64,000 bases of DNA from Yuukianura sp. NJ FZ-2021 (GCA_046563655.1 CM102290.1:12896001-12960000); one strand, 5' to 3'; positions 2,566 through 56,588 are shown, counted from the stretch's first letter. Made by a program: numbers and translations. Notes: generated from the sequence alone by a model not told the origin.

Positions 2566-7694
<5,129 letters not shown>

Positions 7695-9515
7695 TTTCGT
7701 GTACTTGACCCTACCGTGTGCTGGGTAGAGACTTCTGCTATGATCAGAGGTGTAACAAAGTAGTTTTATAGATTTCTAATATGATTGAAGAAGCTTTCAC
7801 TGATTTTGATAAACTGCTCCATACCTGCGCGGAATTAATTGGCATAATCTTATCACATATGAAATAACAATTACTACGCCATCACCAGTACTTCTCTTCA
7901 ACATCATCATCAATCGCCTGCATATTCAAGGCGAGATGAAAAAGTGACATAGATCGTCTATTGTAAATGTTGAACTGGTTTTACAGCAATTGATCTTTCA
8001 GGAACAAAGGAAAACTGACATTTTGAAGGAAAGTGCTGTGAATTCTTGCTACTACGCAGACGTATAGTTTGACGCAAACGTTTCACTAACGTAACTCAAT
8101 TGAGGACTTAAATAAACATGTATTGAGGTTGCTAAAAGTTTTATTCATTGGCTATAATGCGGCGTCACCTGAAATCACGTGTTATTGGTTGAAATTAATG
8201 CAATCAGAGTTGCAGTTTCGAAATACCGCTGTGAGAAGTTGAAGCGCGTTTAAGCTAATGAGGCTCCGCCCCCAAAATCTTGATGATCAAGTTAGTTATC
8301 GAATTGACATCTATACGACAAAGCAAGGGTTGCATGTTAGATGTTCATGTTGCATGGATTTTGCATTTCGAATTTCTACAGTCGATACCCTCATGCTCTT
8401 ATTGCTCGGTTCCAACAAAAGTTTTCGCGGGCAAACCGGACGGATTCAAATCGCACACATATGAAACGTTGTTAACTTATAGCAGCATTTTTTTTGTTTA
8501 CAAGCGTAATCCCGCCAAAAACATAAGCTTTACGGTATCCTGCTATCAGGCGGAGCGGACCTAAAAGTTGCACAGTGAGGGGTTCTACTGTAACTGTAAA
8601 ATACTGTTAGACTAAAAATGCAATTTGCGAATTTATCACTGGAAATAATTTGCAAATGAGGTATTCATCCCACAGGTAGCTTCTGGAACGAACTTTAACT
8701 CGACAGAAGATATTGGGGGAAGATAAAACACGTAATTTACGTAATCTAGTTTTTCCATAAGTTTAGCATCTCAAATTCATATGCTGGAAATGAACTTTGG
8801 GATTGAGATTCTCATTCCCCAAAGTTCATTTTCTTACTGCTGCATCAGCAAAAACAAATAAACTTTTTCCTAGTTTGTTACACATAGTTTATGCATATTT
8901 TAGTTTAGAAAATTAAAAGTGTACACAAAATGTAAATGCTAAAACAAAATTAACTCACGTTGCAAAAACTTGGAAATACAAACTTCCAGTACGAAGCTTC
9001 ATTAGTTGAGTCACTCGTACAGATAAACTTTCACTACTCTGAGTTGTGCATTGCCTTTAAGTTGGAACAGGGCCAAAATTTACTAACAATACTTAAAAGA
9101 TGTCAAAAATCCATCGATGACAGCAGCCTTTATGACTGTTTATACATTCTAAATATGTTTATCAACCATCATAATCCAATTCCAAGTCCACTTTGGTCCA
9201 CAAAGTCACCACCTCCCGTCGTCCACAAAAGATAGACAGATAGTTTGTCTCAAACCTTGACAATACAAGTCCATACAACGACTGCCCGTGTCTTCCAGTT
9301 ATCACTACTACCACCTCGTTTCAGTATTCAGAACACCGTCTTTACAAAATATCTCTCAGGATTCGACTAAAACGCTCATAATTATCCCATTTACTTTACT
9401 AAGTCGTATCCTCACTTGTCAAATAGGAAAGTTTTGAGGCTGATTGAACCAATTGCTGCGTAGAAAGTCAATTTGAGTGACCGATTTTTGTCTGGAAACT
9501 TCCTCTGTGTTATTA

Positions 9516-12224
9516 ATGGGCCTGGAACCTCCTGGATTCAGCATCATCTGCCTCTTGTTGGCTGCACTGGATCCATCGCTTGGCGCTGCCACGCAAGACA
9601 GGTCAATTCCCCTCGGGGTCATTGTCACCGGACTCCGAGTCGAGGTAAATGTCCAAATCTTATTCAGTAACGAAGCTACTTTATGAATTGACCTTGTCCG
9701 TGTGTCTGTCTCTCTGCCGGCTACAATTATATCACTTAATCTATGGCAAGGTTGCTCTGGCGCCCATATATACAAATGCGGTAACAGGTTGTCACAACTC
9801 TATTTGTTTAAAATTGCGAAAAACAAATTTTTTGTACCAATCCCGTTTGCTTAACATAGCGCGTGGTCAACTTTTTCAGACGAAAAATCAAAATAAACAT
9901 TTATTAAAAAACAGGAGTTATGGCATAACCTGTTAAGAAAAAACAAACAAAATTTTGATTTGAACAACCTTGATCCATGGCACCCCATTACTCCAGGTGA
10001 CCTTATAGGGTCACCATTACCTGTGAAAATGAAAAATAAGAATGAATTTTCGCTTGATGTTTTATGGATCTCCTATTTTTTGAACAGGATGCGAACGTCT
10101 CTTATGAAAACGGAACATCAGTAATTGTTGCAAATTCTCCAATTCGGATTCGGCTCTTCGGTGAAGGATTTACCAATGATACACTTGTCCGGTTCACGTC
10201 AGAGAGTCAAGGCAGATCTGCCGTTTGCCATGACAACTCCATGTCCAACTTGACGTCAAGTCCCGCCTATCCGGTGAGAGTCGAGAATCACATTTAAAAT
10301 TGGGATGTTGAAAAAATTAATTAACAATTAGTTAATTCTTGGTTTTCAAATAAGGTGTCCGATGTTGGTCCGCTGTCAGACTCCGCCTGGCTAGAAATCA
10401 GCTTCCCCTCGCCCACAGTCGGCACTGAATATTTTTTCATTTGCACACTCCAACAAGCCAGCAGTACTTCCGCGTCTACTTGGATTCATCAAGGGAATGA
10501 CGACTGGCTACGAATCAAGGTCAAGGACAGACTCCTCCCCTTCTGGCTCCAATGTCTCTTCATTTCTATTCTGTTGCTGCTGTCAGGCCTCTTTGCAGGG
10601 CTGACCCTTGGTCTCCTAGCACTGGATCGCACTGACCTCAAGATACTGGCCAATACTGGTTCAGACAAAGAAAGAAAGTATGCCAAGACAATCATTCCTC
10701 TTCGGACGCGTGGGAATTATCTACTGTGTAGCCTTGTTCTTGGAAATGTCCTTGTCAACTCTACCCTAACAATTCTTCTGGATGATCTCACTACCGGGGT
10801 TATCGCCATCATTGCATCGACAACAGGGATTGTCATCGTAGGGGAAATCATACCACAGGCGATTTGTTCCAGAAATGGATTGGCCATTGGAGCTAAGACG
10901 GTGTGGCTAACAAAGTTTCTCATGCTCATTACGTTTCCGCTGTCCTACACGATCAGTTTCATCCTGGACAAAATCTTAGGAGAAGAAATTGGAATCGTTT
11001 ACAATCGAGAAAAACTCAAAGAACTTATTACGGTGAATCTTCAAATTTCAAATTTTATTAAAAAAAATTAATTGTTTCAGTTTTCAGTAATTTTCAGATT
11101 AATTTTAGTTCGTTGAAGGTTTTTAGAAGGAGGGGGCGGAGCCATCGCTGAGTTGGCGGGAAATGGCGTTGATCCACTACTTTAAACTATTATTGACTTA
11201 TTGCAGGTAACAATTGAGCACAATGATTTGGAGACAGATGAGGTCAACATCATTTCAGGGGCATTGACCTTAAAAAAGAAAACAGTTGAGGATGTCATGA
11301 CCCCTCTGGCCGAAGTTTTCATGCTTCCAGCCCAAACGTTGTTGGATGCGGAGCTCCTCGCTGAAATTCGAAAACAAGGTTACTCAACGCAAAGAAAATA
11401 TTTTTTTTTGTTTCTGAATTTTTTTTCCAAAAACAAGGTTTTGCACGTATTCCGATCTACGATGGAGAAAGGAGTCGAATATTGTCCGTTTTGAACACGA
11501 AGGACCTCGTGTGTGTAACTGGTGACAAAGTGCCACTACATACTTTGATTGAGCCGAACAATACTTGCTTCTTTGTCTTTTCCGATGCCACACTGGATGT
11601 AATGTTCAACGCATTTAAAACAGGTTTGACAAAAAAATTCATCAATCTTGATTAGGGGTGTAAATAAGTCACTTCTTTCTACAAATCCGGATTTCTGATT
11701 TTAATTTAAAAAATTCGGATTTTAATCCGGATTTCAGAATACAGACGAATTCCCATAAGAGTTTCTTTTAGTTCTCCTAAATTGTAAACAACGTTGGTTT
11801 TCAGCTTCAATTACTAAAAAAAAGTTGAAAATGGAATAGGAATGCTCTTTTTGATTAACTGAATTTAAGGAAGCACTTTAAACTCAAATTTTCGGTTGTT
11901 GAGGTCAATTTTCGAATTCTCCATACCCTAAAATGGGAGAAAAAATCCGTCACATCCGGATTCGATATTTTCGGAATAGGGATAGGGAAGAATCCGGATC
12001 CATCAAAAATCCGGATTTATATCCGGAACAAAAATCCGGATTTACACGCCTAATCTTGATGAAATTTGGCATTGACTTGTTTAATTTCAACAGGAAATCG
12101 GGGTCACATGGCGTTTGTCCAGAAATTGAATACTGGACAAGACGACAGAGACCCATATTGTGAAATCATTGGAATTGTAACACTGGAGGACATCCTGATT
12201 GATTGGTGGCCAGAACGATTTTGA
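9516..12224 (+). CDS. CNNM: CNNM-family paralog C, ending after the CBS pair (no CNBH domain)
   Basis: Exons approx. 9516-9644, 10088-10273, 10355-11032, 11207-11378, 11438-11623, 12093-12224. Contains a signal-like N-terminus, DUF21 motifs (SGLFAGLTLGLLALD, GEIIPQAICSRNGL) and CBS motifs (GFARIP, GHMAFV..DPYCE..TLEDIL), then IDWWPERF*. Confidence 0.88.
9747..9972. mobile_element. hAT-type MITE, CAAGGTT family subtype A
   Basis: Ends CAAGGTT...AACCTTG. 8-bp flanks atctatgg / atccatgg (7/8). Confidence 0.85.
11653..12052. mobile_element. hAT-type MITE with subterminal TCCGGA repeats, in last intron of CNNM-C
   Basis: TIR taggggtgtaaat / atttacacgccta. Perfect 8-bp TSD ATCTTGAT at 11645-11652 and 12053-12060. 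Confidence 0.9.
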
Positions 12225-13179: not shown

Positions 13180-15785
13180 TTATCGTAGCAGAGACTTGAT
13201 CGTTTTGGAAATAATTTCAACACATTCCGCCAGTTGATTTTCAGTAATGGTGAGGGGTGGAGCAAAACGAATGATGTCTCCGTGCGTTGGTTTCGCCAAC
13301 AGTCCATTGTCCCGCAGTCGCAAACAAACATCCCAAGCATTGAATTCTAAAAAAAAACAAGTGCAATTTATCAAAAAATTGAAATCGTATTTAAATTAAA
13401 AAAAAGGCGGCAAAATTTGGAATACCTTTGCCAATGACGATGGCATTCAAAAGCCCCTTGCCTCGAACTGCCTTGACGACATTTGATGGAAGCAAAGCTA
13501 ATTCATTCCTAAGTATTTTCCCAAGTTTGTCTGAGTTTTCTGCCAAATTTTCCTCTTCCAGAACTTCCAGAGCGGCCATAGCAACTCTGCTTGCCAACGG
13601 ATTTCCACCGTATGTGGATCCATGTTCTCCGGGTTTGATGCACATCATAACTGGATCATCGGCCAAAACAGCAGAAACCTAAAAGCATAGACATGCCATT
13701 GGTAAAAAGTGGATAAAAAGGCACAGAGTCATAAATATCTCAGAAATATCGCGACTACTGAGATACTTTTTCGAGATATTTTTGATCGAAATATGATATT
13801 AATGACAGGTACACTTGAGTTTGTAGACTTACTGGAAGAATGCCACCGGACAAGGCTTTGCCCAGTATGACGATGTCCGGTCGTACGTTTTCGTGGTCCA
13901 CACATAGCCGTCGACCCGTTCGAGCCAAACCGGTCTGCACTTCATCAGCAATGAAGAGGACGTTATTGGCTGAACAAAGTTCTCGGACACCGCGGAGATA
14001 ACCTTGGTGCGGCACAACGACTCCGGCTTCACCTTGGATTGGTTCAACCATGAAAGCACAAACAGTTGGATCCTGGAGCGCAGCCTAAAAAATAACACAA
14101 TGGTACTGCCATTAATGTCATTTTATAGGTTTGGCTCCCCGCAATGTTCCCAGTTTCGGTCACTCTTCCAAATGGTCCGAAATGTCCGAATAAGGGTACT
14201 AAGGTGGCTAACTATGTGAACTACTAAAATTGAATGTATATAACTAGAACTTGTAAAATTGAATGTATTCCGTCTCTTTCCTTGTTTTTTTATGCTTCAA
14301 GCTTGGACCGTAGTAAATTAACTTTGAAATTTTGAAATAAAAAAAATGAGCCGATAAATTTAATCATACATGACATTGTGACTGTGAGCTGATCCTGGTA
14401 GATTAAATTATTATAATTAATTCAAAACTAAATTTCAAAAAAAATTGTACAAAGTCCTAGGCACGTGGTGGCATAAATCAAAACCGGTTTGTGAATTTGG
14501 AAATTTTTAAAACCGGTCCAGTGAGTAGTCTACACCTCCCTCACGGACCAATCAGAGAAGCGGATGCAAACTGGTCATTTTGAAATATGTTGTCCAATTG
14601 CGCATTACAACTTCTGATCATACGATAAAAATACCGTAAAGATCCTACTTCTGAGCTTCAATGTTCCAGTTGACCTTGGAAAATGAAACTTCCACCTCTT
14701 GGAGAAGCTAAAGTTCTCAGTTCAGTTTTGTATTTCCTAAATTGTTAATATGACCTTGACTGTTTGAGCAACATGTTAATGAAATGTAAAGTGATGCTTA
14801 TGGTTTCATGAAAAGCATTTTTAGCACTAGTGGATGAGAAAGGATGAGAAAGTTGTACTTTTGATGACTAAATTGCTCCAGTAACCTCGAAATGCTATAA
14901 CAATTGAAGTGTTTTCACTTACGTTGAGGGCATTGAGGTCATTGTAGGGAATCGTTTCAAAGCCAGGCATGAATGGTCCAAAGCCTTCGTACGACGTTGG
15001 ATCCGTCGAAGCCGAAATTGCCGCCAGTGTTCGTCCCCAAAAATTTCCTTCAGCAAAGACAATCTTGGCTTCGTTTTTCGGAATTCCTTTTTTCATATAG
15101 CCCCACTTCCTGGCCAACTTGCACGCCGTTTCACCTCCTTCCACGCCTGGTTAATTTTGGAGCCAAAATTTAAACAGAAAAGATTTTAAAATTTTCAAAA
15201 TTAAAAAAAAATTCAAATACATTTTGAGTTTTTTTTAAGACTTTTACCAGTGTTCATGGGCAAAACTTTGTCGTATCCGAACAACTTCGTGATGTACTCC
15301 TGGTACTCTCCGAGTGCTTCCGAGTAGAAGGCTCGGGACGTAAGTGTCAACACCTCAGCCTGGTCCTTAAGGGCATGAATGATCTTAGGGTGACAGTGAC
15401 CTTGGTTCACAGCGGAGTATGCGCTGAGAAAGTCATAGTACTTGCGATTCTCAACGTCCCAGACATAAACGCCTGAAATTAAACCAACGTTGAAATTTAA
15501 ACATTCTAAAAAAAGTGTACAAAATTTAGCCGTAAAATTGATTCAGTTTAGACAAGTTTAGGTAAAGTTTTATAAGTACTATGCATCACCTTTTCCTCTG
15601 CATAATGCTACAGGGATAGGATGGTAATTGTGAGCGCCAAATTTCGACTCGCGTTCGAAAATTTGTTGACTGTCTCCAATTACAGATTTGGACAGTGGTT
15701 GACCACTGGCTTTGGTGCGCTTGAGCAGTAAGTGTGTAGGGGCTGCGGAGTAGTTTGACGTGACTCGACTCAAATTTCGCAACAT
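13180..15785 (-). CDS. OAT: Ornithine aminotransferase, mitochondrial
   Basis: Motifs include [66 protein letters not shown] (PLP lysine), [10 protein letters not shown] and IRFAPPL. The N-terminus resembles a transit peptide. Confidence 0.97.
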
Positions 15786-16291
15786 GCTTAACGTTATGAA
15801 TTGACTTTTTGTAACTTCTAAATTGGGAATACTCTCCAGGAGGGACTGTTCCCAGTGATATCTGGAAGGCTAATGAGCAAGAAAAAAGAACTGATCTGTC
15901 CAGTAGTCCTGGGATTTAAAACCTACTTAAACAACTTTCTAACCCATTATCCAACTACTCAATACACTCCATGAGTGATAAATGAAAATTAATATGTTGG
16001 AGAGTGCATTAAGTGGGGTCACTTCACACTCCTATTCCTCCTTAAAATTAAACACAATAGACGCTGTGTTAGGGCACACGCGGTACGGGGGTGAAATGGC
16101 GCAGTTAAGGAGTTGATAGTGGAGGTTTTGTTTTCGCCACAATTTGGCATTGAAGTGCTAAATCCTAAAAATTTTCCATGAATTAATACTGCTACTCCAT
16201 CAAAGGAAAGATGTTAGACCAAAAAACAGCAATTTAAAGGCTATTTGAAGTGAACATTTTAGAGACTTTTGAATATTTTTAATAATCAGTA

Positions 16292-16635
16292 CAGTAAAAT
16301 CCCTCATTGTGCAACAGGAAAAAGTCTTCGGCTGATACTGTAAAGCTTCAGGTTAACTACATCGTTGATATTACATCTCAGTGCTAATTTTTTCGTCGAA
16401 ATTTGAGGGAGGGGTACTTAATTAATAGGGACAAGGGGCATTATTTGGGAGAGGTGTACTATTTGAAGATTTACGGTATAAGCTAAACTCAAATCACCGA
16501 ATCTCAGTTTCAGGGAATTTCAGGAGGTCTAGGTTTATTGTTTACAATAAAAATTCTCCAAGATTTTTGTGTTTTACGGTTTTCCGCTGGTACAAAGAAA
16601 GAGAAAGAAGTGTTGCGCAATGAGGGGCTTTACTG
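16292..16635. mobile_element. pogo/Tc1-type MITE
   Basis: TA|cagtaaaatccctcattgtgcaac ... gttgcgcaatgaggggctttactg|TA. Confidence 0.75.
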
Positions 16636-17798
16636 TAAGAACAACGTGAAATCTAGCATGTCATTTCTCTGTGTGTCCTAGTTTAGAAAGACTTGGGTTC
16701 ACTCTTTTATCAAAAAGTTATTCTAAAAACAGTTCCGTTCTTATGTTTCATGGTATTTCTGGGTTGGATAAGGCTGACGCAGCAGAGGTTTCATTGACCC
16801 CTTGGAGTTTTAGGAAAGTTTTTCTGTTCAGCTGTGGGTCAACGAAGAGGTCAACTGCTTATGTCCTATTGGGCAGTAGTTGGAAGGAGCCATAGAGCTG
16901 TAGAGCATTATGATAACAAGACGCCATCTCATGAATTGAGCAGCATGCTGTAATTCTAATCTGGTTTCAAATTTCACTTAAATTAAACAGTAGTTTTCGC
17001 CATTTGGAAAACTCAGATAAAGACAGCGCGATTCAGGGAAGATCTGTGAGCTATTTCTCATGCATGTATCTTGGGTTTGATTTATCTGAAATGTTATCCA
17101 GGATTAATTAAAAAAAAAGAAATGGATTTTGTTTGTTTTTTTTTCTTCTAAATTTAGAAGTTCCACAGAAATTGTTTTTTTTTAAACGAAAGCTGTTAAC
17201 ATGTCAAAACTGTAAAAACCTTTAATGATTAATGGCGTTAGCTAATGAGAATAAATTGCATTAAAAACGTATTGGCCAAATTTGGCCTTCAGGCACAGAT
17301 TGTTCAACTTTGTAGTGTGCCCGTGACTGGCCTACACGTGCACTTTCTGCTGAAAGCTGAAAACAGCTGACAAACCGTAACTCTCGTCGCTTGAAAATCA
17401 TTTTAATCACAGTATTTTGCTTTATTAATTAGCGAAACTACAAGTATATTGACGTTTGTGATAGAACACGGTGCAGAAATACGGGAATCTTCAGCCAACC
17501 TTTCCTAGGAATAAAGGAAGATTGTAACGGTAAGGTTGTAACTACTAAAACATTTGCCACAATCCACCCAGAAAATACAATTCAATCCGAACTTGGTCAT
17601 TCAAATTGGATGATCCAACATCAATAGTAGTAGTTACCGAATGTGATTGCGATTTAAGTATTTATGAGGTTATTGGAGATCATTTTTACCAATTGACACT
17701 TTTTCTTTTCTTTTTTTTACAGAGAAGGAAGTGACTTTAACTCCAGGTCCGTGGCGGGCGGGTGTAATAAATCAATCGTTTTGAACGTTGACTATGTA

Positions 17799-18197
17799 AT
17801 GGATAATCTTACACCGAACGAGGACGAATTTGACTCAATTATTCTTGGAGAAGAAGCAGTTACAACAGTTGGGTTTGAAGAGGGATTGCGGAAAGGGGAC
17901 CTGGAGTGTCAACTAACCGGACTGAATACGGCAATAAAAATACCAAGGACTTTGATCACTTCGCAGTCAGCGTTACTGTCTTACTTGAAAGCAGACATCA
18001 CGGCAAGATTTGGTGATACTTCAATTCCGGCCTCCCTTGTCCAATTGCAGAAGGAGCTTCAAGAAATTGAAACCAAGGAGAAGCTCCTCGACATACTGAA
18101 GACGCTTATCGACAGTGAACACTGCAGTTTACAAACGACTTCATTCACTTCACTGTACCTTACGACTAACCTTTCTGGCGCTAACACTGCTGGGTAG
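17799..18197 (+). CDS. Small LTO1/YAE1-like (Yae1_N, GX3-repeat) protein; first cistron upstream of METTL25
   Basis: 132-aa intronless ORF after a 5'UTR intron (~17530-17722). EFDSIILGEE...GFEEGLRKGDLECQLTG resembles the LTO1 N-terminus and the GxxxGxxxG pattern of LTO1/YAE1 (recalled, divergent). Confidence 0.55.
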   Translation: MDNLTPNEDEFDSIILGEEAVTTVGFEEGLRKGDLECQLTGLNTAIKIPRTLITSQSALLSYLKADITARFGDTSIPASLVQLQKELQEIETKEKLLDILKTLIDSEHCSLQTTSFTSLYLTTNLSGANTAG

Positions 18198-18206
18198 TCC
18201 ACCATC

Positions 18207-20408
18207 ATGAAAGGTTCTGCCCGGAAACTGGACAAACTGCATGACGTGGAAAAATGTTTGGAACGACTGACGTCCTTTCTGACTCCTGCACTTCCGTTCA
18301 TCAACGCCCACAACGTCGATTATTTCGTCAAATCTTATTGGGACCAATACTTGCCTCAAAGAATCCGAACCGATGCTGAACAAGGTCGTGATAATTGTAC
18401 AACATTGAAGTTGCATGTGGATAATCTTTGCAGTGGAGCCTGGAGGAAAAGTGACAATGTCTCAGGAAATGACATACCTTTTCAAAATTGTAATTTGGAG
18501 GATCTTGTACATACTCTAGGAGAATTTGGACTAAAGGCTATGAAAATGAGTGTAACATTGGAGGAAATCCCCCTTTTAACATCCGATACTCCCAGTATTC
18601 ATATTGATCTTGGCGTAGAAGAAGGAGACCTCAAGTTTGACCAAATCATGTCACCCAAGAAAATGCATGAAGTGGAGGCAATGAGTTACTTGATACATCG
18701 TGCAGCCAAAGTCGCTGATCGTTCGTCCATAACTGCAGAAGACGATGTCAACTCCTGCGTCGCTCAGAAACGCACCGTGAAAAACTTGATTGATTTCGGC
18801 AGTGGCAAGGGATATATGAGTTCATTCTTGGCGTTTCTGTACGATTACAAAGTGCTTGCTCTGGATGCTTCACCTGGAAACACTTCCGCTTCTCATGAAA
18901 GATCCGAAAAACTATCCGTAAGGCGGGTTTTCTTTTAAAAAAACGACGAAAACTAATTTTTTTTTGTATACAGAAATACTGGTATCACCTCTTGAGACGT
19001 GCAGCAGAACGAGCTAAGACTGGAGAATGTATCAGCAGCAGATCAAAGCTTTGGAAGGAAAACAAGCATAATGTAGTAGCAGAAGATGAATCTTCTGAAA
19101 ATAATAACTTCGTGGCAATACAACCGAGCAAGGAAAAGGCAGAGATTTACAAGAACTTGACCAATTTAAATCGGATTGTTCATAGTGCAATGGATTTGGA
19201 CGAGTTGTTTCGCCGTCGCGATGTTAATACGAATATGATAGACGACGCACACACTGAATTCGGTATTGTCGGGCTGCATACGTGTGGGTGAGTTTGATTA
19301 ACAAATTGATCTAACTACTGGTATAATGTCGTGTTTTTTAAGGAAGACAACAAGTTATAATTAACCGACATTTTTGTATATTTTACCAGGGACCTTGGTG
19401 TGGACTCAATTAATCTGTTCCTTCAGCATGACAATGCTCTCTTCTTGTGCAACGTTCCATGTTGTTACCATCATTTAGAAGAAATGATTTTCCCAACATC
19501 GGTTTCCGAAGTAAACAGTCCGTACTCTCGTTCACGGCAGAAACGCAGTACTAACAATTGGACAGTTGAGGAGCCAGTGGCTACACAAACTACATTCCCC
19601 CTCAGTTCTTTCTTGCAGCACAAACAGTTCAATCTAGGAAGAAATGCTCGGATGCTGTCTTCCTATTCTCATCAACGGATTCGCGAGGAACTTGATGAAG
19701 TTAGAATTTTTGACATTGATTTTTGCATTGTCATTCTTTTCTTTTTCATACGGTAACCTTATGCTTTTGTATTACAGAAACACGGGGTCGACCTCCATTT
19801 GATTTGGAGACTTCTGCTACAAGTTATCATCAATGAGAAGCTCGGACACACAGTATTGGAACACCAAGTGGGGAAAATTGCTAAACGCTGTTCTAACTTT
19901 GAGGAGTACGTCAGAGAAGCCATGAAAAAGCTTCAACTCGAACACATTCAGGTAAGACTGATAATGGAATAACGATAGACTATATAGTATAATTATTTAT
20001 TTTTGCAGGCCAATACTATTATATATTTTTGCAGGTCACCAACGAAGAAATCAACGACACGTTTCGACGGTATGAACCACAATTCCAGCACTTTCAATTC
20101 TATTACGGAATCAGAACGATGCTAGCGCCACTGCTGGAAGCTTGTATACTCCTAGACAGACTCGCCTATTTGCTGGAACAGGTAACAGTTTCTTTAGTTT
20201 TTAGTTTGAATTAAATATAATTAAAGTTTCAGATATATTAGTCAACTAGTCAAGTTAACTTTTTTTTTTCTAATTTTGGCAATTCTTATTTGTCTAGGAA
20301 GAGATTCGGGATGCTTATATTGTCGAAGTGTTCAACGAACTCATGTCTCCTCGTCGCCATGCTATCCTGGCCTTCAAGATCCCCAGCGACCGTCAACATT
20401 TAATTTGA
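18207..20408 (+). CDS. METTL25: Methyltransferase-like 25 family protein
   Basis: Six exons. Motifs SPKKMHEV, IDFGSGKGY (SAM motif I), GLHTCGDL, VPCCYH, ILLDRLAYL and MSPR. Confidence 0.88.
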
Positions 20409-20541
20409 TTTAAGGTCCAAGTTTAGTTTCCATGGCATTCTATACACGAAATTGTTTCCATGACAGCGAATAAAAATTCGTTAGAAAGGTGTTTTACTTC
20501 AAGAAAGAAAAGCAGTTTGGCGCGCTGCAGACTGCAAATTA

Positions 20542-22067: not shown

Positions 22068-25000
22068 ATGTCATCAAGTTCCGATATGACGGAGACAGGA
22101 AGTTGTTCCAGGTCCAGCAGCAGTTGCAGTGTTGAGAACGTCACCACGACGCCTGACACTGACGACACACTTTCCATTTTTAGTTTCATTTCCCTTAGTC
22201 ACCATCATCATGAGCACTCTTGTCACAATTCCTCAGGAAATCTGAGTAGAAGTCCGAGTGATTTGAGCCTCAGGAATGGTCACTCCCCTGACATTCCCCA
22301 CTGCTGTGGTTGTAACCATAGTAACAGTAGCCATTGTGTCGGATTCCACAGTATGTCACCGTGTAATACTTTGGATCTCAAGCGATGTGGGGATGAGTCG
22401 CTGTTCTGGAAGTGCACCCTACTGCAGAAGTTAATTGGGGAGGAAGAGAGCCGGAAATGTAACTGTCAATTCCAGCATCCCTCTCAACCACATTCCCTCT
22501 GCAAAACCAATTACATTCAGTTGCTGTCAAAAGGCAGGGATGGTCTGCTACTCAAAAGTCTCGAAAAAGGAGGTAAAACATTCAGTTTTAGTCAAAAATT
22601 TTGGTCATTTGATCGCTCCGATTTTAGTTTTCGAAATTTCCTGTCCTCATTCAGTCGAAAATGTTGATAGAAAAGCATCTCAAAATCGGGCGCCAAATTA
22701 AACCACCCCAAATTTTTTGGTAGTATCAAAAAACGGATTTTCGAAAACTGTATAGTTTTTTCAAATTTTGTTTTTTTTTGTTTAGAAAAATTGGAAAAAA
22801 CTGGAGATTTTGCAGAGAAAAACATTTTTTACAAAACAGTGAACACTTTTAAGTAATTTTTTAGCACGTTTCTTCTAAGTTCCCGTCAAACGCAAAATTT
22901 AATGTTCTACAAAAACTAAAAAAAAATGCACGGAGAAGCGGTAACCCTATGATAATTTCTTTTTTGCCAGAATGCTAAACAGTTAAATGAAGCGCATCTT
23001 GGATTCTCGGGGGTTGTTTTTGTTTCACATCGTGCCGAGATTAAATCATTGACTTCTCTTTCTTTGGCATTGCATTAAGAAATCGACAAAACATCTCCAC
23101 AATTTTGAATTGTGTCTGTCAATGTCAAAATCAGGAAGAGATAATGTAGACATTTGAAGTTCTCATTGTGCAAAAAAGGAACTTTTTGTCCAAAGTGGTA
23201 TTGAAGGTATGAATGCGGCGATGGTGGGAAGAGGGTTGAAAAGAAACAAGAAGATAAGTATATAGTATGGTGAGAAATCCACTTAAGGCGTGTAGGAAGT
23301 GTGCAGTAACTTATCCTGATAAGTTTCAGTTTTAATTGACTCTAGAATCAGTAACTTCACCCTCTCTTTTTCTCTGTGGAACTGCTAACAAGTAGGAATT
23401 AGTGCTCCAAAGCGTTCATTGGCATTTATAGGGGATGATGGACAGTTCCCAGTTCTCACGTGATATGGGAACTCAATGTGAAGGAAAAGCAAAATCAAGG
23501 AAAAACAAATTAAACACGAGCGTCAAAAGTGGATGAATTTTTGATAAATATTTCACGAAAAACACAAATTTTTTTAAGCAAAAACGGTCCAAGTAGCTTG
23601 TCGCTTCGATCCAGACCGGAATTTTATTTCTCCTCATGCTAAATTTTTAAAACTTTTACTTTTTCCCATTTAACTTTTAACTTTTCACATTTGACTTTTA
23701 ACTTTTTGCATCTAGATTTTAACTTTTTGTAGCTAAATTTTTTTTACATTTAACTTTTTGCATCTAACTTTGAACTTTTACATTTCACTTTTAACTTTTT
23801 ACACGTAAGTTTTAACTTTTACATTTAACTTTTAACTTTTTACACGTAAGTTTTAACTTTTATATTTAACTTTTAACTTTTAACATATAAGTTTTAACTC
23901 TTCACATTTAACTGTTAACTTTTAACTGGACAAGGATGAGAGGATCTAGACAGGTTTTAATTAGCCAATGTGTCATGTTGTAAGATTCGGCCTTGAAACT
24001 GTGCTAAATAATTAATGAAGATGACAAGACAAAAGCATGCGCAGAAACCCATATGGCTTCGTGAACACTTAAGAAAGAGGCAGTTTATTTGGCGGAAGGT
24101 GTTGTTTATTTAATTAGTTTCGCCTTTGAACTTTCAGCATTACATTTCCTCTGAGAATAAAGTTTAGCATCTAATTCATGATGCTCTTGACGTGCCTTTT
24201 CCTTTTTCAATAAAGTTATAAACAGAAGATGCGTTGTTTGCATTGTAAGTCATCTTTCATCACTCGCGTAATTGACAAGCTCCGCCCCTTTATTAATTAT
24301 TTCCACTTAACGTTGGTCCATTGTTCTCCTGTGATCAGCTTAGTCATGTTCTTATTAATCAAATTGCAGATTGACGCTCTCTGGGAGGGAGGAAACTTTC
24401 AAAATTTCAAAATTGTTTCTTTCATTTCCTTTTGTCGTTTTGACTTTTGAACATGCTGAGATGAAACTTGAACTTAAAATTGGTGAGGTTAATATGAAAT
24501 TCGTGATGAGTAAATTGTCGAATGTTGTTGCAGTACAGTAATCCACATTCTCGTTGCCAGTACCACGCCTGAATTTTTTTAAAGCAGCATCAAGTTTGCA
24601 ATTTTTTTTTTGAAAATTTGAGTTTGCTGTTTACCTTGGATTGACCAACACCATGATCTTCTGGGAGGTTAAAAGTTTACACCTAACGAAGTTTTTTTGG
24701 GACAATTTTTATTACTTTGCCGGCACGGCAGAAATGGCGAGGAAAAAAATCGTGATTCAGAATATCATTTGGAAAGTACGGCTTTAATGAAATTGATTTG
24801 CTCATTGGCTAACATTGTATAAACTTAAAAATTTGCATACAATCAGTAATCAACTGGGCATCCGACTTTCACTTTAGTATTTCACAAAATTTCATGTTAG
24901 AGTTCATGGCGAATGTGGAATATCTTGTGTTCTTACAGGAAAATCCAAATCAGTTTACTAAAGTTTAAATAGAAAATTTTGCCCTAAAATTTGACTTCTG

Positions 25001-27704: not shown

Positions 27705-27930
27705 CAAGGTTCGTTAAACAAAAAAAAAACTTTTTCTACACCAGGTTGTCCAGTAACTAGAAGTTTCAGAATTTGTTTGAAGAAAAAATTCTGGCTTTCT
27801 ATGGTAATTTTTCGCATGTAATGTAAATGGGATTCATGCAGAAAGTTTGAAGTATAAGATTTTTGTAAACCCCGAGGTACTGAACAACCTCTTGTAGACT
27901 GGCTGTAGATTGGTTGCTATAGCAACCTTG
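27705..27930. mobile_element. CAAGGTT-family MITE, degenerate or chimeric
   Basis: Subtype-B-like left end and interior. Right end ttgctatagcaaccttg resembles subtype A. No TSD match. Confidence 0.65.
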
Positions 27931-28474
27931 GACATTACCCTTATCTTTGGCTTTAATTAATTTCCAGTCGCGTCTATTACGTTGAAATTTCAACTTTCAA
28001 CTTCGTTGTACCGTTGAATTAATTTGCAATTCCCGCACAATTTCAAATCTACATAACAAATTAATCTAAAATAAAAATCATTAACAATTAGAATTGTAGC
28101 GCCGTGTACGTTCATTTTGACAAAAAATTAATCACTCAAAGCGCGTGAATAATTTCAGTGGGAATTTTCTTTGGCCTATAAATAAGCTAACTGGTTAGTT
28201 ATTTCTTTAACAATCATTACAAATACTTGACTCTGTACCATCCAAACCACTAAACACACATACAAGTCTAACGATTAGACAATGCTAAAACACCGGTTGA
28301 CAAACAAGTTGCCATGGCCACCACTTTGGTAACTGAGAAACATTGTACATGCATGACTATAAAACTCTAAAATATGAGCTTCAAACCTAAACTACAAAAT
28401 TAAGGCCAATGATTTCTGAGCCGCGATGTACATTTTACATGGAAAGAGTCGTGAAGACTTGAGAGAAGCCGAAT

Positions 28475-45928: not shown

Positions 45929-46596
45929 GGAAGATAAAAATTAGAACACGAGCGAATTCTAAATTGACAGCATCCGCACTCTACTCGTTGAATAAATGGA
46001 AAAATTCGTAGACAAGGACGCATCCGCATGGAACTAATAAACCGATAGTCGATTGAAAGTGGAACAGGACAGGTTTGGGTGTTGGAGCCGCAGTACGGCG
46101 GCTTCTGGACGGTTATTGTTTATGGACAAGTGACTACGGTAGGAACTGCTCAGGTCTCAACGTCAAGGTCTCTGTGTATTTCTTCTCACCCACTATATGT
46201 TCCACCACTCCACGCTCACAAAACAGTCGTGGATGGTGACATTTTACTCTTTTCGCCAGTTCAGCTCCGTCCTGAGACTGAAGTTGGCTTTCGTATGTTT
46301 TAGATGTAACGGACCCCAGACGAGTTCCTTAACAATTTTGCTTGTAAAACCATCACGCTAGTAATGTAAGAATGACTTCTATTTAAACGTCTTCTGTTGT
46401 AACGTAATTTAAGAACGTATTGATAATTTTTAGACCTAGCCCAGTTTAACTCCAGTCAACGTTTTGGACTCTACTCATTATGATTATAGCACGTGGTGTA
46501 ATCACTTGCTTCAAATAAAAGCGCGGGACGATTCATTCCAGTGAAATTTACGAGCTCTTGTTTATTTATTTTTTCAAAATCGTGTAGAAATTGTGA

Positions 46597-46811: not shown

Positions 46812-47896
46812 TTAACATTTACGGATTCGGTGACTTCGCTTCACACAGCGTTCCATGAAGGCATCCACATAGTCAGTCAGGTCCCGTTCAGTTTGAGTAG
46901 TGGTGGCGATGAGTCGAGTTTCTTCGTCCCTTCCGTCCTTGGAACGATTGGGATTGATATAGCCAAGTGCACGATCAATTTCAAACAAAACGAAGGCAAA
47001 GAATCGCTCGTCTGCGGCTGTGAACGGCAAGTAATGAAGTAGTCCATAACTCTCGTTAGTTTCAGCTAACCGCTGCGTTAACATTCTAAACTTGCCCTCT
47101 ACTGGAAACGCAGGCCCGGCCTGACTCAGTTTCGTGCACAGCGTTGAGAAGTCTGGTGAAGCGTAATACTCAAATGGAAAGTCCAGCTTGTGTTTCTGAT
47201 CTGTTGAATTGTAGAGGATGTCCACTTTACTTAGCAAGTTGACAGTTGGAAGCCCCATGTGACACATCGTCATTGTGGCGTTTGTACTATAACCGATGAA
47301 CAAATCTGCAAAATAGTTTTACGGTTATCCAAAAGCAGGCAATTAGAATTATACATAGATTCTTACTGGCTTACCGGGAGTCAAGAGAATGTTGGCCTCA
47401 AACATGTAGATGTTGCAGACTGACAGTTTTGCATCCAGTAGTTTCTGATAGAAATTCTTGATTGGATTCCTAAGGGTGAATAACTCCACCTATGACAAAG
47501 TTAAGAATAAATGATACAGAAGAACCACGAGGAATGTTGTTGGAATTGGGAATAAGTTACCTGTCCTGGCATATCCAGAATAACAATTGTTCCTGGATCA
47601 TACGTCTGGATTTCGTTAATTAGTTCTGCGTGATGGTGCGTAAAGAAAGAAGTAATTGACTCCATCAAAGCTCCGTTCGGCCCGAGATCCATTGTCTTCA
47701 TGACCTCCGATACTCTCGTAAAGTCCAAAATATTCCAATCTGGCTGGTACACTAGATTGACTTCACAACCGGGGTCAATGTTGCAAATTTTGACGCATCG
47801 ATTTTTGTCTAATAAAAATTTTTGAAGTCCTTTGCAGAAGGTTGACTTTCCTGCTCCAGGAGTTCCAGTAACTCCAATAACATATTTTAACACCAT
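46812..47896 (-). CDS. GPN-loop GTPase (GPN2-like, divergent)
   Basis: Three exons. P-loop GTPGAGKST, NIDPG, LGPNGAL (GPN loop), DMPGQVELFT and NLLSKVD. Confidence 0.88.
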
Positions 47897-47911
47897 ATCG
47901 CCAGCGTTGTA

Positions 47912-48280
47912 TCACTGACCAAGGAACGCCTGTTCTATATGTTTAGAAACCGAAGATAGAAAGTCTTTAGAAATGTGGCCCTGGGACAACCGCAACGAGA
48001 GAACAACTGATTCGGCAGTGGAGTATTTGAATGCTGCTTCAGCAATGACTCGAGCGGCTAATACTAGTTCCGAATTCTCGAACCCAAATAAATTGGTGAT
48101 ATCGTAGGTAGACGATTCGAGATGGTCCGCCTTGTTCACGCGAAACCAAGTCCCGGGTTGCCCCGTTTCGCTCAAAATTACAAGACGGACGTTTGCGAAT
48201 TGTTGAACACACAACTGCACTTCAAAGGACCCAAACGAAACAACAGTGTTCGTACTCTTTACTGGGAACCTTTGTTCCAT
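47912..48280 (-). CDS. PSMG3: Proteasome assembly chaperone 3-like; first cistron upstream of the GPN gene
   Basis: 122-aa intronless ORF. Pattern FPVKS...F.NVRLVILSETGQPGTW...LFG...LAARVI...VVLSL resembles PAC3/PSMG3 in length and motif order (recalled). Confidence 0.7.
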   Translation of the reverse strand: MEQRFPVKSTNTVVSFGSFEVQLCVQQFANVRLVILSETGQPGTWFRVNKADHLESSTYDITNLFGFENSELVLAARVIAEAAFKYSTAESVVLSLRLSQGHISKDFLSSVSKHIEQAFLGQ

Positions 48281-49377
48281 ATTCCTGTATAACAAAAAAG
48301 TGATGTTATTAAGCCGATTCAGCCAAATTAATTTTTACCGAGCTATTAGCAACGTGTAACTTTCCTACCCATCGACAGCAGACGTACAAAGGACGACCAA
48401 GCTTGAAAGAAGTCAAGTACGAAATCCAACGTATTGTTAGTTACTTGAAAAACTGATCTTGAAACCGTCGTTTGAGTTTGATTTACTAGTGAGACAGGAG
48501 ACCACGGACAAACTTGGTTGACGTAACCACAATTTTGCATGTTATAACCATCCTTTCAAGTCTTATTTCAATGGGATCCCACAAGTGGGGAGGGTGAATG
48601 GGTTAAGTTATTGGCAAGGTCGGACGGTGAATGGGTTAAGTTATTGGAAAGATACAACGAATAGTAGTACACCGTAGTGCGACAATAAGAAAGGGAAAAC
48701 ACAATATCCGTACATGTGTCGTATCTGAGGAATAGGTGCCCCTCACATTAGAGCCGAATGCGACGTAAAATTTATGGTAACTCATTGTACCCCAGTTAGC
48801 ATTGTACTATGCCCCTGATACCAATCGTGCAGCGACACTCGAATACAATAAATTTACATTGTAGCCCCCCAAGTATTTTAGGCCACATGTATACCTAACC
48901 AAACGTGACCCGAAGGATACAGGATAACAACAATTGCAGCCCTCCGTTAACCATGCGTGGTTACAATGGATGCCTCTGCTGTACTTCATCAACGCGAAAT
49001 TGGTAAACAAAACTAGAAAATTTGCTGACCGGTTTTGATTACTCCGCTGCTCTTAAATATTCTGTATGTCGTTGTTTCCTCGACTATGTCAGGGACCCTG
49101 GGCCAAGGTCACGTTTGATTTTATCAGGTATTTTACAATTTACACAAAACGTTGCACGAATTGTTACAAAACCTTAGTTTGTGTACAGGGAAGGTCATAA
49201 ATAAACCTCTTGTTGTGTTTCAGTGCCTCTGCTGCCTTCGTTTGGCTTTGAATATCGACTGAATAACTTCCTAGCTTCGAGGCGCTCGAGTGTGAAGCCG
49301 GTACGGTAAAAATATTTAGAAATACAAAGAAATAGACTGACGATGTACTTTGTTTTTAGATAGACACCTCGAGGGGT

Positions 49378-50289
49378 ATGCATACGCAACGTCAGAGAAC
49401 ATCGGAGGAATACCGATTACGTTCCTGCGTTTCCTGCGGTCAGATCTCAGTGTTGGCAAGTCTCTTAAAATCTGTGGCTTTTACTAACAAAGTGAACGTT
49501 ACTGCCATTCCGAGAGGCCTTCGGTTTATAGTGGAAGAGGGAAAGTATGTCCAAGCATCAGTGACAGTCAACCGCGACATTTTTGAAGAGTACAAGATTG
49601 ATAATGATGGGGACGAAGCCGATACCTCATTCAAAGTTTCGTTCAAAGAACTCCTCGACTGCTTAAAATTCTTCTGTACAGATGGACATGGACGGGGTGG
49701 TGATACGTTTGCATCAGCAACGACTACTGCAATTCAGAGTAATAGTAACAGTTCATCGCTCAAGCTCTTGTACAGATCCTTTGGAAACCCCCTTCAGCTA
49801 CTACTGGATGAAAATGGGATTGTCACGGATTTTCAAATAATGACTGAACCATTTGACGATGACTTGATGGAGTTTGACGTAGGTGGAGCAACCATTGCGT
49901 GTAAATTAATTCTTGCATCGGAACAAATGAGTGATCTCCTGGCAGAATTTGAAAGTAACAACCCAGGCACAATTCGAGTCGGTATAATCCCCGACAAGGA
50001 GATGACCCTATCCTGTGACGGCATTGCCGGTGTCATGACTGCATCGATTCCATGCGACTCTGAAATGGTGCAACTCTTTGAAAGTGCTTCAGAGCTTCAC
50101 GTCACGTACAAATTTTCAGTGCTCCGCTATTCATTCCGGGCGATGAACATGAGCCAGACGATGTCCATTAAAATAGACTCCAACGGAGTATTGAGACTGA
50201 TCTTCTTGATGCCTACCAAATCGGATTCTTTTGTAGAATTTTTCTGTCTACCAAGCTCAATGGACGAAACGGATGTTCCAATTGGATAA
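49378..50289 (+). CDS. RAD1: Cell cycle checkpoint protein RAD1 (9-1-1 clamp subunit)
   Basis: Motifs LLKSVAF, GLRFIVEEGKYVQAS...IFEEY, LLDCLKFF, GNPLQLLLDE and C-terminal FVEFFCLP, all typical of Rad1. Confidence 0.88.
   Translation: MHTQRQRTSEEYRLRSCVSCGQISVLASLLKSVAFTNKVNVTAIPRGLRFIVEEGKYVQASVTVNRDIFEEYKIDNDGDEADTSFKVSFKELLDCLKFFCTDGHGRGGDTFASATTTAIQSNSNSSSLKLLYRSFGNPLQLLLDENGIVTDFQIMTEPFDDDLMEFDVGGATIACKLILASEQMSDLLAEFESNNPGTIRVGIIPDKEMTLSCDGIAGVMTASIPCDSEMVQLFESASELHVTYKFSVLRYSFRAMNMSQTMSIKIDSNGVLRLIFLMPTKSDSFVEFFCLPSSMDETDVPIG

Positions 50290-53626: not shown

Positions 53627-56588
<2,962 letters not shown>

Follow-up and report, generated by a model that had tools for sequence, protein, structure and literature searches.

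How are two proteins expressed when their open reading frames (ORFs) lie only nine nucleotides (nt) apart and in the same frame? This question is raised by a pair of genes in a stretch of 64,000 nt from Yuukianura sp. NJ FZ-2021 (GCA_046563655.1 CM102290.1:12896001-12960000), hereafter the window, in which an ORF of 132 amino acids (aa), named ORF1, directly precedes a METTL25-type methyltransferase gene. The explanation that we favour, with a probability of roughly 0.6, is that this pair and a second one in the window are expressed as mature dicistronic mRNAs, the second cistron of which would be served by ribosomes that pass over the first AUG and go on scanning. This reading builds on the position, spacing and frame of the ORFs, the complete purge of ATG triplets before the second start, the conservation of ORF1, the absence of an internal poly(A) signal and the poor splice acceptors at the junctions between the cistrons. 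The first pair, hereafter unit 1, consists of the following features.

17794..17799, + strand: start-stop element ATGTAA, with A at -3, the final A doubling as the first letter of the ORF1 start codon; any function is putative.
17799..18197, + strand: cistron 1 (ORF1), an ORF of 132 aa plus TAG, without an internal ATG in any frame.
18198..18206, + strand: spacer of 9 nt, in frame (TCCACCATC), which puts an A at -3 of the METTL25 ATG.
18207..20408, + strand: cistron 2, a METTL25-type methyltransferase gene with six predicted exons.
18207-18917, 18974-19287, 19390-19699, 19778-19951, 20035-20181 and 20298-20408, + strand: the predicted exons of the METTL25-type gene.

Read directly from the sequence, ORF1 runs from ATG 17799 to the TAG at 18195-18197, and the second ORF opens in the same frame at ATG 18207. 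The preliminary description of this locus had reported a 132-aa ORF with this stop, a METTL25 start in the same frame nine nt further on and a start-stop overlapping the first start, and all three were recovered at these positions, the start-stop sharing one A with the ORF1 ATG. The spliced METTL25 model has an open frame of 588 codons in six exons, with introns of 56-116 nt and the stop TGA at 20406. Exon 1 matches the Pfam family Methyltransf_32 with 35.2 bits (cut-off 27) at profile positions 1-78, and exon 3 matches the same family with 22.6 bits at profile positions 114-142. A METTL25-type protein was defined by a length of about 600 aa and a Methyltransf_32 domain scoring above the cut-off, and both were found; the predicted product of the second ORF is thus a METTL25-type methyltransferase, either METTL25 or its paralogue METTL25B. 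In a word-index homology search (longer lengths), METTL25 exon 1 had no match.

The most conspicuous property of unit 1 is its lack of ATG. On the + strand between 17600 and 18300, the triplet occurs only at 17610, 17641, 17664, 17794, 17799, 18207, 18241 and 18254, so that the 405 nt between the start codon of ORF1 and ATG 18207 contain none in any frame. The absence had been noted by eye in the preliminary description, together with a rough expectation of 6-7, and the counts bear out both, the base composition giving 6.6. In 5000 mononucleotide shuffles the mean was 6.7 ATG and the probability of finding none was 0.0012; the corresponding values in 5000 first-order Markov simulations were 4.7 and 0.0094. 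Coding exons of the same window used as a control (8652 nt) have 7.5 ATG per 405 nt, and not one of 197 sliding 405-nt windows in other confident coding exons has fewer than two. Directly 3' of the purge, METTL25 exon 1 contains 17 ATG in 699 nt, and the whole predicted METTL25 coding sequence 37 in 1764 nt (8.5 per 405 nt). At the Met frequency of the window (2.4%), a 132-aa protein would lack an internal Met with a probability of 0.044, and given the ORF1 protein and the codon usage of the window, the probability of no out-of-frame ATG is 0.081.

A second pair in the window, unit 2, has the same layout on the opposite strand.

47912..48280, - strand: cistron 1, the PAC3 ORF, 122 aa plus TGA (47914-47912), without an internal ATG in any frame.
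47897..47911, - strand: spacer of 15 nt, in frame.
47561..47896, - strand: first exon of cistron 2, a GPN-loop GTPase gene, with its ATG at 47896 and the P-loop at ORF residues 10-17.

The first cistron, with its ATG at 48280, encodes proteasome assembly chaperone 3 (Pfam PAC3, 30.8 bits, cut-off 21.2). The second matches Pfam ATP_bind_1 with 86.9 bits and has a later exon at 46812-47318. In the word-index search (longer lengths) GPN exon 1 had one match, P0002, which is 43% identical, and the GPN paralogue is left unnamed here; in a metagenome locus scan, 79 patterns matched this exon and none was confirmed. No ATG occurs in the 380 nt between the PAC3 and GPN starts, for which the probability is 0.014 in the Markov model, 0.056 for a Met-free protein and 0.083 under synonymous resampling. 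Unit 2 is built like unit 1 and is an independent replicate of the purge within the window. Because the PAC3/GPN pair is built in the same way as the ORF1/METTL25 pair, we infer that the succession of cistron, spacer and cistron with an ATG purge is a recurrent gene architecture of this genome, and this forms part of the favoured explanation.

How specific this arrangement is can be seen from a scan of all 71 ATG-free gaps of at least 200 nt on both strands of the window. In three of the 71, an ORF ends at most 40 nt before the closing ATG, and in only two does the gap open with an ORF of 100 aa or more whose end is at most 15 nt from the closing ATG of a long ORF; these two are units 1 and 2. 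The third flagged gap (58612-58302) was rejected as a unit, its 90-aa ORF being followed after 37 nt by a mere 7-aa ORF. Four other ATG-free runs of 397-459 nt lie at 16211-16620, 27836-28282 and 53997-54456 on the + strand and at 20344-19947 on the - strand. No long ORF corresponds to them, those that begin at their first ATG measuring 4-30 aa; leaders, promoters or an effect of composition may account for them. A long run alone is not unique, and the special point is that the ATG-free run coincides exactly with a conserved ORF and its spacer.

The conservation of ORF1 was assessed by an exhaustive phmmer search of 1.84 billion representative proteins, whose sole match was P0001, a protein of 131 aa (E 1.5e-24) from a single 529-nt contig. 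By BLASTP the two are 44% identical over 129 positions (E 7e-38); they share an M-D-N start, and their C-termini lie within about five alignment columns of each other. Because this full-length homologue aligns from M1 to near both C-termini, we read ORF1 as a real protein gene that is complete in a single exon and ends naturally at its stop. An ORF1 both unconserved and untranslated had been named in the preliminary description as an outcome that would overturn it, and the homologue speaks against a lack of conservation. A word-index homology search at near lengths gave no match for ORF1, and in the metagenome locus scan 392 patterns matched the ORF1/P0001 alignment with none confirmed.

What ORF1 encodes is less firmly fixed. 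No Pfam family reaches threshold, and the search against Pfam Yae1_N (PF09811) that had been proposed as a check of the LTO1/YAE1-like label came out negative, the family being listed neither for ORF1 at E up to 1 nor for its first 47 residues or P0001 at E up to 10. In the ESM Atlas, all 30 nearest clusters of ORF1 are Yae1_N (score 0.92, 196 of 256 features shared), as are all 30 of P0001 (score 0.94, 206 features shared), although such neighbours are a protein-language-model lead and not an alignment. The neighbouring clusters comprise proteins of 120-170 aa, mostly from arthropods. G25, G29 and G33 of ORF1 are spaced by four residues and are invariant in P0001, which amounts to just three glycines in register. 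A length of about 130 aa and a G-x3-G repeat towards the N-terminus are traits of Yae1_N/LTO1, and LTO1/Yae1_N serves as an Fe-S adaptor for ABCE1. A profile search of the PDB with the two-sequence ORF1 alignment gave an unrelated DASH subunit as the best match (E 0.075), and AlphaFold2 on the same alignment gave a poor model (mean pLDDT, the predicted local distance difference test, 58.5). ORF1 is probably LTO1/Yae1_N-like; the label is carried by the language-model neighbours and not by Pfam, and this is part of the reason why the preliminary description stands only partially.

Signals for the 3' ends and splicing of the transcripts were then located, and two features of unit 1 belong here.

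17530..17722, + strand: predicted intron in the 5' untranslated region (UTR), with donor GTAAGG at 17530 and acceptor AG at 17721-17722 (16/20 T, 95% pyrimidine).
20469..20474, + strand: AATAAA, 61 nt past the METTL25 stop, the only AATAAA beyond 17933 in unit 1.

On the + strand between 17700 and 20700, AATAAA is found only at 17766, 17933 and 20469. Neither AATAAA nor ATTAAA occurs on this strand between 17934 and 20209, and the ATTAAA at 20210 and 20220 lie inside a predicted intron. For unit 2, the only AATAAA on the - strand from 48400 to 46500 is at 46570. Since no poly(A) hexamer lies between the cistrons of either unit, the first cistrons lack a 3'-end signal of their own. Of the two upstream copies, that at 17766-17771 (+ strand) precedes the start-stop by 28 nt, within the putative leader, and that at 17933-17938 (+ strand) is in the middle of ORF1; use of either would truncate the message before the end of ORF1.

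The AGs at the junctions (the TAG in unit 1 and the last CAG codon in unit 2) are preceded by 5/20 T and 50% pyrimidine, against 10-12/20 T at the five METTL25 intron acceptors and 10-16/20 T at credible acceptors overall. As poor acceptors, they argue against cis- or trans-splicing at the junctions. An intron from GTCCGT at 17749 to the junction AG of unit 1 was likewise discarded, its donor being unlike the five METTL25 donors and its acceptor poor. Further upstream the situation is different. The predicted 5'-UTR intron of unit 1 would excise the ATGs at 17610, 17641 and 17664, and the putative first exon is free of ATG back to 17245. In unit 2, a strong acceptor with its AG ending at 48285 lies 4 nt 5' of the PAC3 ATG, and with the plausible donor GTAACT at 48444 it would delimit an intron that removes ATG 48372; the putative first exon would then lie between the - strand ATGs at 48540 and 48372. 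The predicted 5'-UTR introns and ATG-free leaders of both units are consistent with the dicistronic model. Scans of the whole window with Rfam and for tRNA returned nothing, including no spliced-leader RNA family, which is weak evidence. An alternative genetic code was also considered and rejected: TGA ends the SRR1 and PP2C ORFs, TAA ends Rad1, and the long exons are open under the standard code.

According to the favoured explanation, ORF1 and the METTL25-type gene would form one transcription unit, the dicistronic mRNA of which would be polyadenylated after METTL25. Cistron 1 would be translated by ribosomes that start at AUG 17799, and cistron 2 by 40S subunits that pass this AUG and scan the next 405 nt, which selection would keep AUG-free in three frames so that AUG 18207 is the next start met. 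We propose a scanning mechanism because the AUG purge spans all frames up to the start of cistron 1. Such a purge is the signature to be expected of 40S subunits that have to scan all of the first cistron; it is not needed by reinitiation after full translation of cistron 1, by readthrough or by an internal start site. Two routes of bypass are likely. One would be plain leaky scanning past AUG 17799. The other, available to unit 1, would begin with initiation at 17794 (A at -3) and immediate termination at the start-stop AUGUAA; the post-termination 40S subunit, placed on the overlapping AUG 17799 without ternary complex, would be unable to use it, and would scan the AUG-free 405 nt, regain competence and reinitiate at 18207 (A at -3). 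Reinitiation after minimal upstream ORFs (uORFs) is the general-knowledge basis of this proposal. For unit 2, which has no start-stop after the acceptor, the bypass would have to come from plain leakiness, from a short leader or from a uORF in the first exon.

Several points weigh against the dicistronic scanning model. Positions -3 and +4 are both G at the ORF1 AUG (gtaATGg), and A and G, respectively, at the PAC3 AUG (aatATGg), neither being a weak context; a purine at -3 is also found in all seven of the other starts inspected. Since both first AUGs stand in strong contexts, little plain leakiness is to be expected. In both units the two cistrons share a frame, as a readthrough model would require; the chance of such a placement is 1 in 9. 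ATG-free runs of at least 380 nt number four on the + strand (408, 409, 446 and 459 nt) and two on the - strand (384 and 397 nt), and four of these six are without such ORFs. P0001 carries an internal Met, so the purge is not absolute in the relative. Meanwhile, only 45 of 159 dicistronic loci in Drosophila are given as exclusively dicistronic in part of PMC4528330, and here too an internal start site may give rise to a monocistronic METTL25 isoform alongside the dicistronic mRNA. Finally, that one transcript exists, that both proteins are made from it and that the start-stop plays a part are what we infer. The claim of the preliminary description that one mRNA serves both proteins is partly supported: it is favoured by the purge, the second unit, the lack of a poly(A) signal, the poor acceptor and the conservation of ORF1, and is weakened by the strong context of the ORF1 AUG.

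The strong ORF1 AUG, which would leave few scanning ribosomes for cistron 2, is also what lends some weight to the unlikely alternative of two overlapping transcripts, in which METTL25 would be read mainly from its own start site in or just upstream of ORF1 and the long mRNA would yield ORF1 only. Monocistronic isoforms accompany 114 of the 159 fly dicistronic loci according to part of PMC4528330. However, the purge of the whole 405 nt (380 nt in unit 2) would be left unexplained by this alternative, as an internal start needs just a short ATG-free leader. The extent of the purge bears in the same way on termination-reinitiation, which we regard as improbable and in which cistron 1 would be fully translated and the 40S subunit would restart at the next AUG, 9 nt further on in unit 1 and 15 nt in unit 2. 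Translating ribosomes ignore internal AUGs, so that a purge near the stop only would be predicted, whereas that observed covers the full ORF. In addition, reinitiation is generally inefficient after ORFs of 122-132 codons, as discussed in PMC11892635. The very short spacers of 9 and 15 nt and the strong first-cistron AUGs would suit such a restart, and a passage of PMC11892635 notes that post-termination 40S subunits can shift over short distances and that the process is not exclusive with leaky scanning.

The other alternatives have much less in their favour. RNA processing at the junction AG, by a trans-spliced leader or an alternative cis-spliced 5' exon, would give monocistronic METTL25 and GPN mRNAs. 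The second ATG is indeed preceded by an AG, at a distance of 9 nt in unit 1 and 18 nt in unit 2, branch-like CTAAC motifs lie 15-30 nt upstream in unit 1, and an acceptor stands close ahead of the ATG in several genes of the window; nevertheless, the junction AGs fall far short of the pyrimidine tracts of credible acceptors (5/20 T and 50% pyrimidine against 10-16/20 T), the upstream cistron has no poly(A) signal, the ATG purge would not be required and the window scan yielded no spliced-leader RNA family, the last being weak evidence, so that this route has very little chance of being correct. Programmed stop-codon readthrough, which would produce LTO1-like/METTL25 and PAC3/GPN fusions, is still harder to credit. 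Both pairs are in frame and their spacers hold sense codons only, but two pairs would be so placed by chance in 1 of 9 cases. The stops differ (TAG-T and TGA-T), and neither corresponds to UGA-C or UAG-CAR-YYA, which are known as leaky contexts. Moreover, P0001 ends within a few residues of the end of ORF1, each second cistron has the N-terminus typical of its family and an ATG of its own in a good context, and TGA also terminates the SRR1 and PP2C genes of the window. The preliminary description had judged readthrough unlikely, and this dismissal is reasonable without being proven, both units being in frame. The alternative that ORF1 arose by chance within a long METTL25 5' UTR free of ATG, and yields no protein, has next to no probability: it would fit the lack of a Pfam family and the poor structure model (mean pLDDT 58.5), but not a full-length homologue of 131 aa with 44% identity and E 1.5e-24 against 1.84 billion proteins, nor the 30 Yae1_N clusters among the 30 Atlas neighbours of both ORF1 and P0001.

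Should the dicistronic scanning model be correct, the two units would provide two clean animal examples of bicistronic mRNAs, with the leaky-scanning signature (no AUG in any frame, very short spacers and no internal poly(A) signal) in its most extreme form. They are distinguished by the complete purge, the spacers of 9 and 15 nt, the strong first AUGs, the overlapping start-stop and the fact that 64 kb with about 17 genes contain two of them. The design could then coexist with strong first start codons, which would call for an extra device, and the start-stop of unit 1 is a candidate for it. Gene finders that assume one ORF per transcript would drop small first cistrons, such as the LTO1-like and PAC3 ORFs, or merge them into the neighbour, and a scan for ATG purges would be a cheap genome-wide finder of such units. 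More tentatively, and with doubt prevailing, AUG-purged first cistrons could be a routine means of expressing pairs of a housekeeping assembly factor and an enzyme from single mRNAs, with the start-stop AUGUAAUG gating the ratio in unit 1. A fixed share of the ribosomes would thereby bypass the strong LTO1-like AUG, with reinitiation 408 nt downstream at METTL25, in a host that is possibly an arthropod outside the well-sampled insects and in which four of the about 17 genes of the 64-kb window stand in such pairs. No description of a bicistronic ratio switch controlled by a start-stop was found.

The surroundings of the two units contain two CNNM genes and genes for an aminotransferase class III, SRR1, Beta-TrCP, Rad1, a PP2C (TAB1-like), a V-ATPase-type subunit and an acyltransferase. 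Unit 1 is head to head with the aminotransferase class III gene (ATG 15785, - strand; region 15785-17530) and unit 2 with Rad1 (ATG 49378, + strand; region 48540-49378), and each unit may share a bidirectional promoter region with its head-to-head neighbour. The CNNM-domain genes at 5926-7775 (- strand) and 10325-11655 (+ strand), with 120 and 103 bits to Pfam CNNM, are also head to head, about 2.5 kb apart, and look like a divergent duplicate pair. An ORF of 200 aa at 22068-22667 (+ strand), 1.6 kb past the METTL25 poly(A) signal, is rich in Ser, His and Cys, has no Pfam family and is preceded by an acceptor-like tract.

In a full-text search, no literature tying LTO1, METTL25 or PSMG3/GPN3 to bicistronic or dicistronic expression was found. 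The names CG2656, Lto1, PSMG3, Mettl25 and Yae1 have no occurrence in six supplement files of PMC4528330, the probable polycistronic gene list lying outside these files. Dicistronic mRNAs with AUG-poor first cistrons are already documented in flies and algae, and both units are probably further examples of this design. As to the features by which leaky scanning is recognised, both units have two conserved ORFs with a short spacer, depletion of AUG and no 3'-end signal between the cistrons, and a weak ORF1 context is found in neither.

Two other known systems resemble parts of the arrangement. One-codon start-stop uORFs, such as those dependent on DENR/MCTS1 and the AUGUAA of plant NIP5;1, stall ribosomes or promote reinitiation. 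Unit 1 is like these minimal uORFs in having an AUG with an immediate stop in the leader, ahead of a regulated start, and differs from them in that the stop overlaps the AUG of a full cistron and the proposed beneficiary would be the second cistron, 408 nt downstream. The spliced-leader operons of nematodes, tunicates and flatworms are resolved to monocistronic mRNAs and need an upstream poly(A) signal and a good acceptor. They share with the units the close spacing of co-oriented genes, which there have one promoter, but a spliced-leader operon was rejected for both units, which have poor junction acceptors (5/20 T) and no upstream poly(A) signal.

The closest animal parallel is found in Drosophila, where dicistronic leaky scanning at stoned/Snapin was reportedly described by Wall and co-workers in 2005 (J Biol Chem). 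For stoned (stnA/stnB) and Snapin, an AUG-poor first cistron and leaky scanning were shown by mutation, as summarised in a passage of PMC11892635, which reports the same for green-algal bicistrons. The units are likewise pairs of animal nuclear genes whose first cistron has no internal AUGs, and a scanning route and a single mRNA are proposed for them. Unlike the fly first cistrons, whose contexts diverge from the consensus according to the same passage of PMC11892635, those described here combine a purine at -3 with G at +4; in addition, the purge extends over three frames, the spacers are 9 and 15 nt, unit 1 has an overlapping start-stop and other gene pairs are concerned. The fly cases are experimentally proven, whereas the present units are known from sequence alone. 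Generally, FlyBase contains 159 dicistronic pairs, or 2.5% of Drosophila genes, as given in part of PMC4528330. Like such loci, each unit combines two unrelated conserved proteins, with one transcript and one poly(A) site as the probable arrangement here. Most fly pairs do not satisfy the requirements of scanning according to FlyBase, as cited in part of PMC4528330, whereas both units have the features that it requires. The density of four of about 17 genes in 64 kb, against the 2.5% given for the fly in that part of PMC4528330, comes from a very small sample.

The green-algal bicistronic loci of Chlamydomonas, Auxenochlorella and Chromochloris, as described in parts of PMC7896298 and PMC11892635, resemble the units in several respects. 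The first ORF is small, with medians of 291-357 nt in the algae and 399 and 369 nt here; the spacers between the ORFs are short, with a median of 40 nt in Auxenochlorella; AUG is depleted before the second ORF, the median observed/expected ratio in the first ORF of Auxenochlorella being 0; and small conserved proteins serve as first cistrons (PMC7896298 and PMC11892635, in the same parts). In contrast, the algal first ORFs have weak Kozak-like sequences and about one third of the pairs are in frame, as far as these parts of the two papers go, whereas both units have strong contexts and both are in frame. The host is also of another kind, since the genes for a Beta-TrCP D domain protein and a TAB1-like PP2C in the window mark it as an animal.

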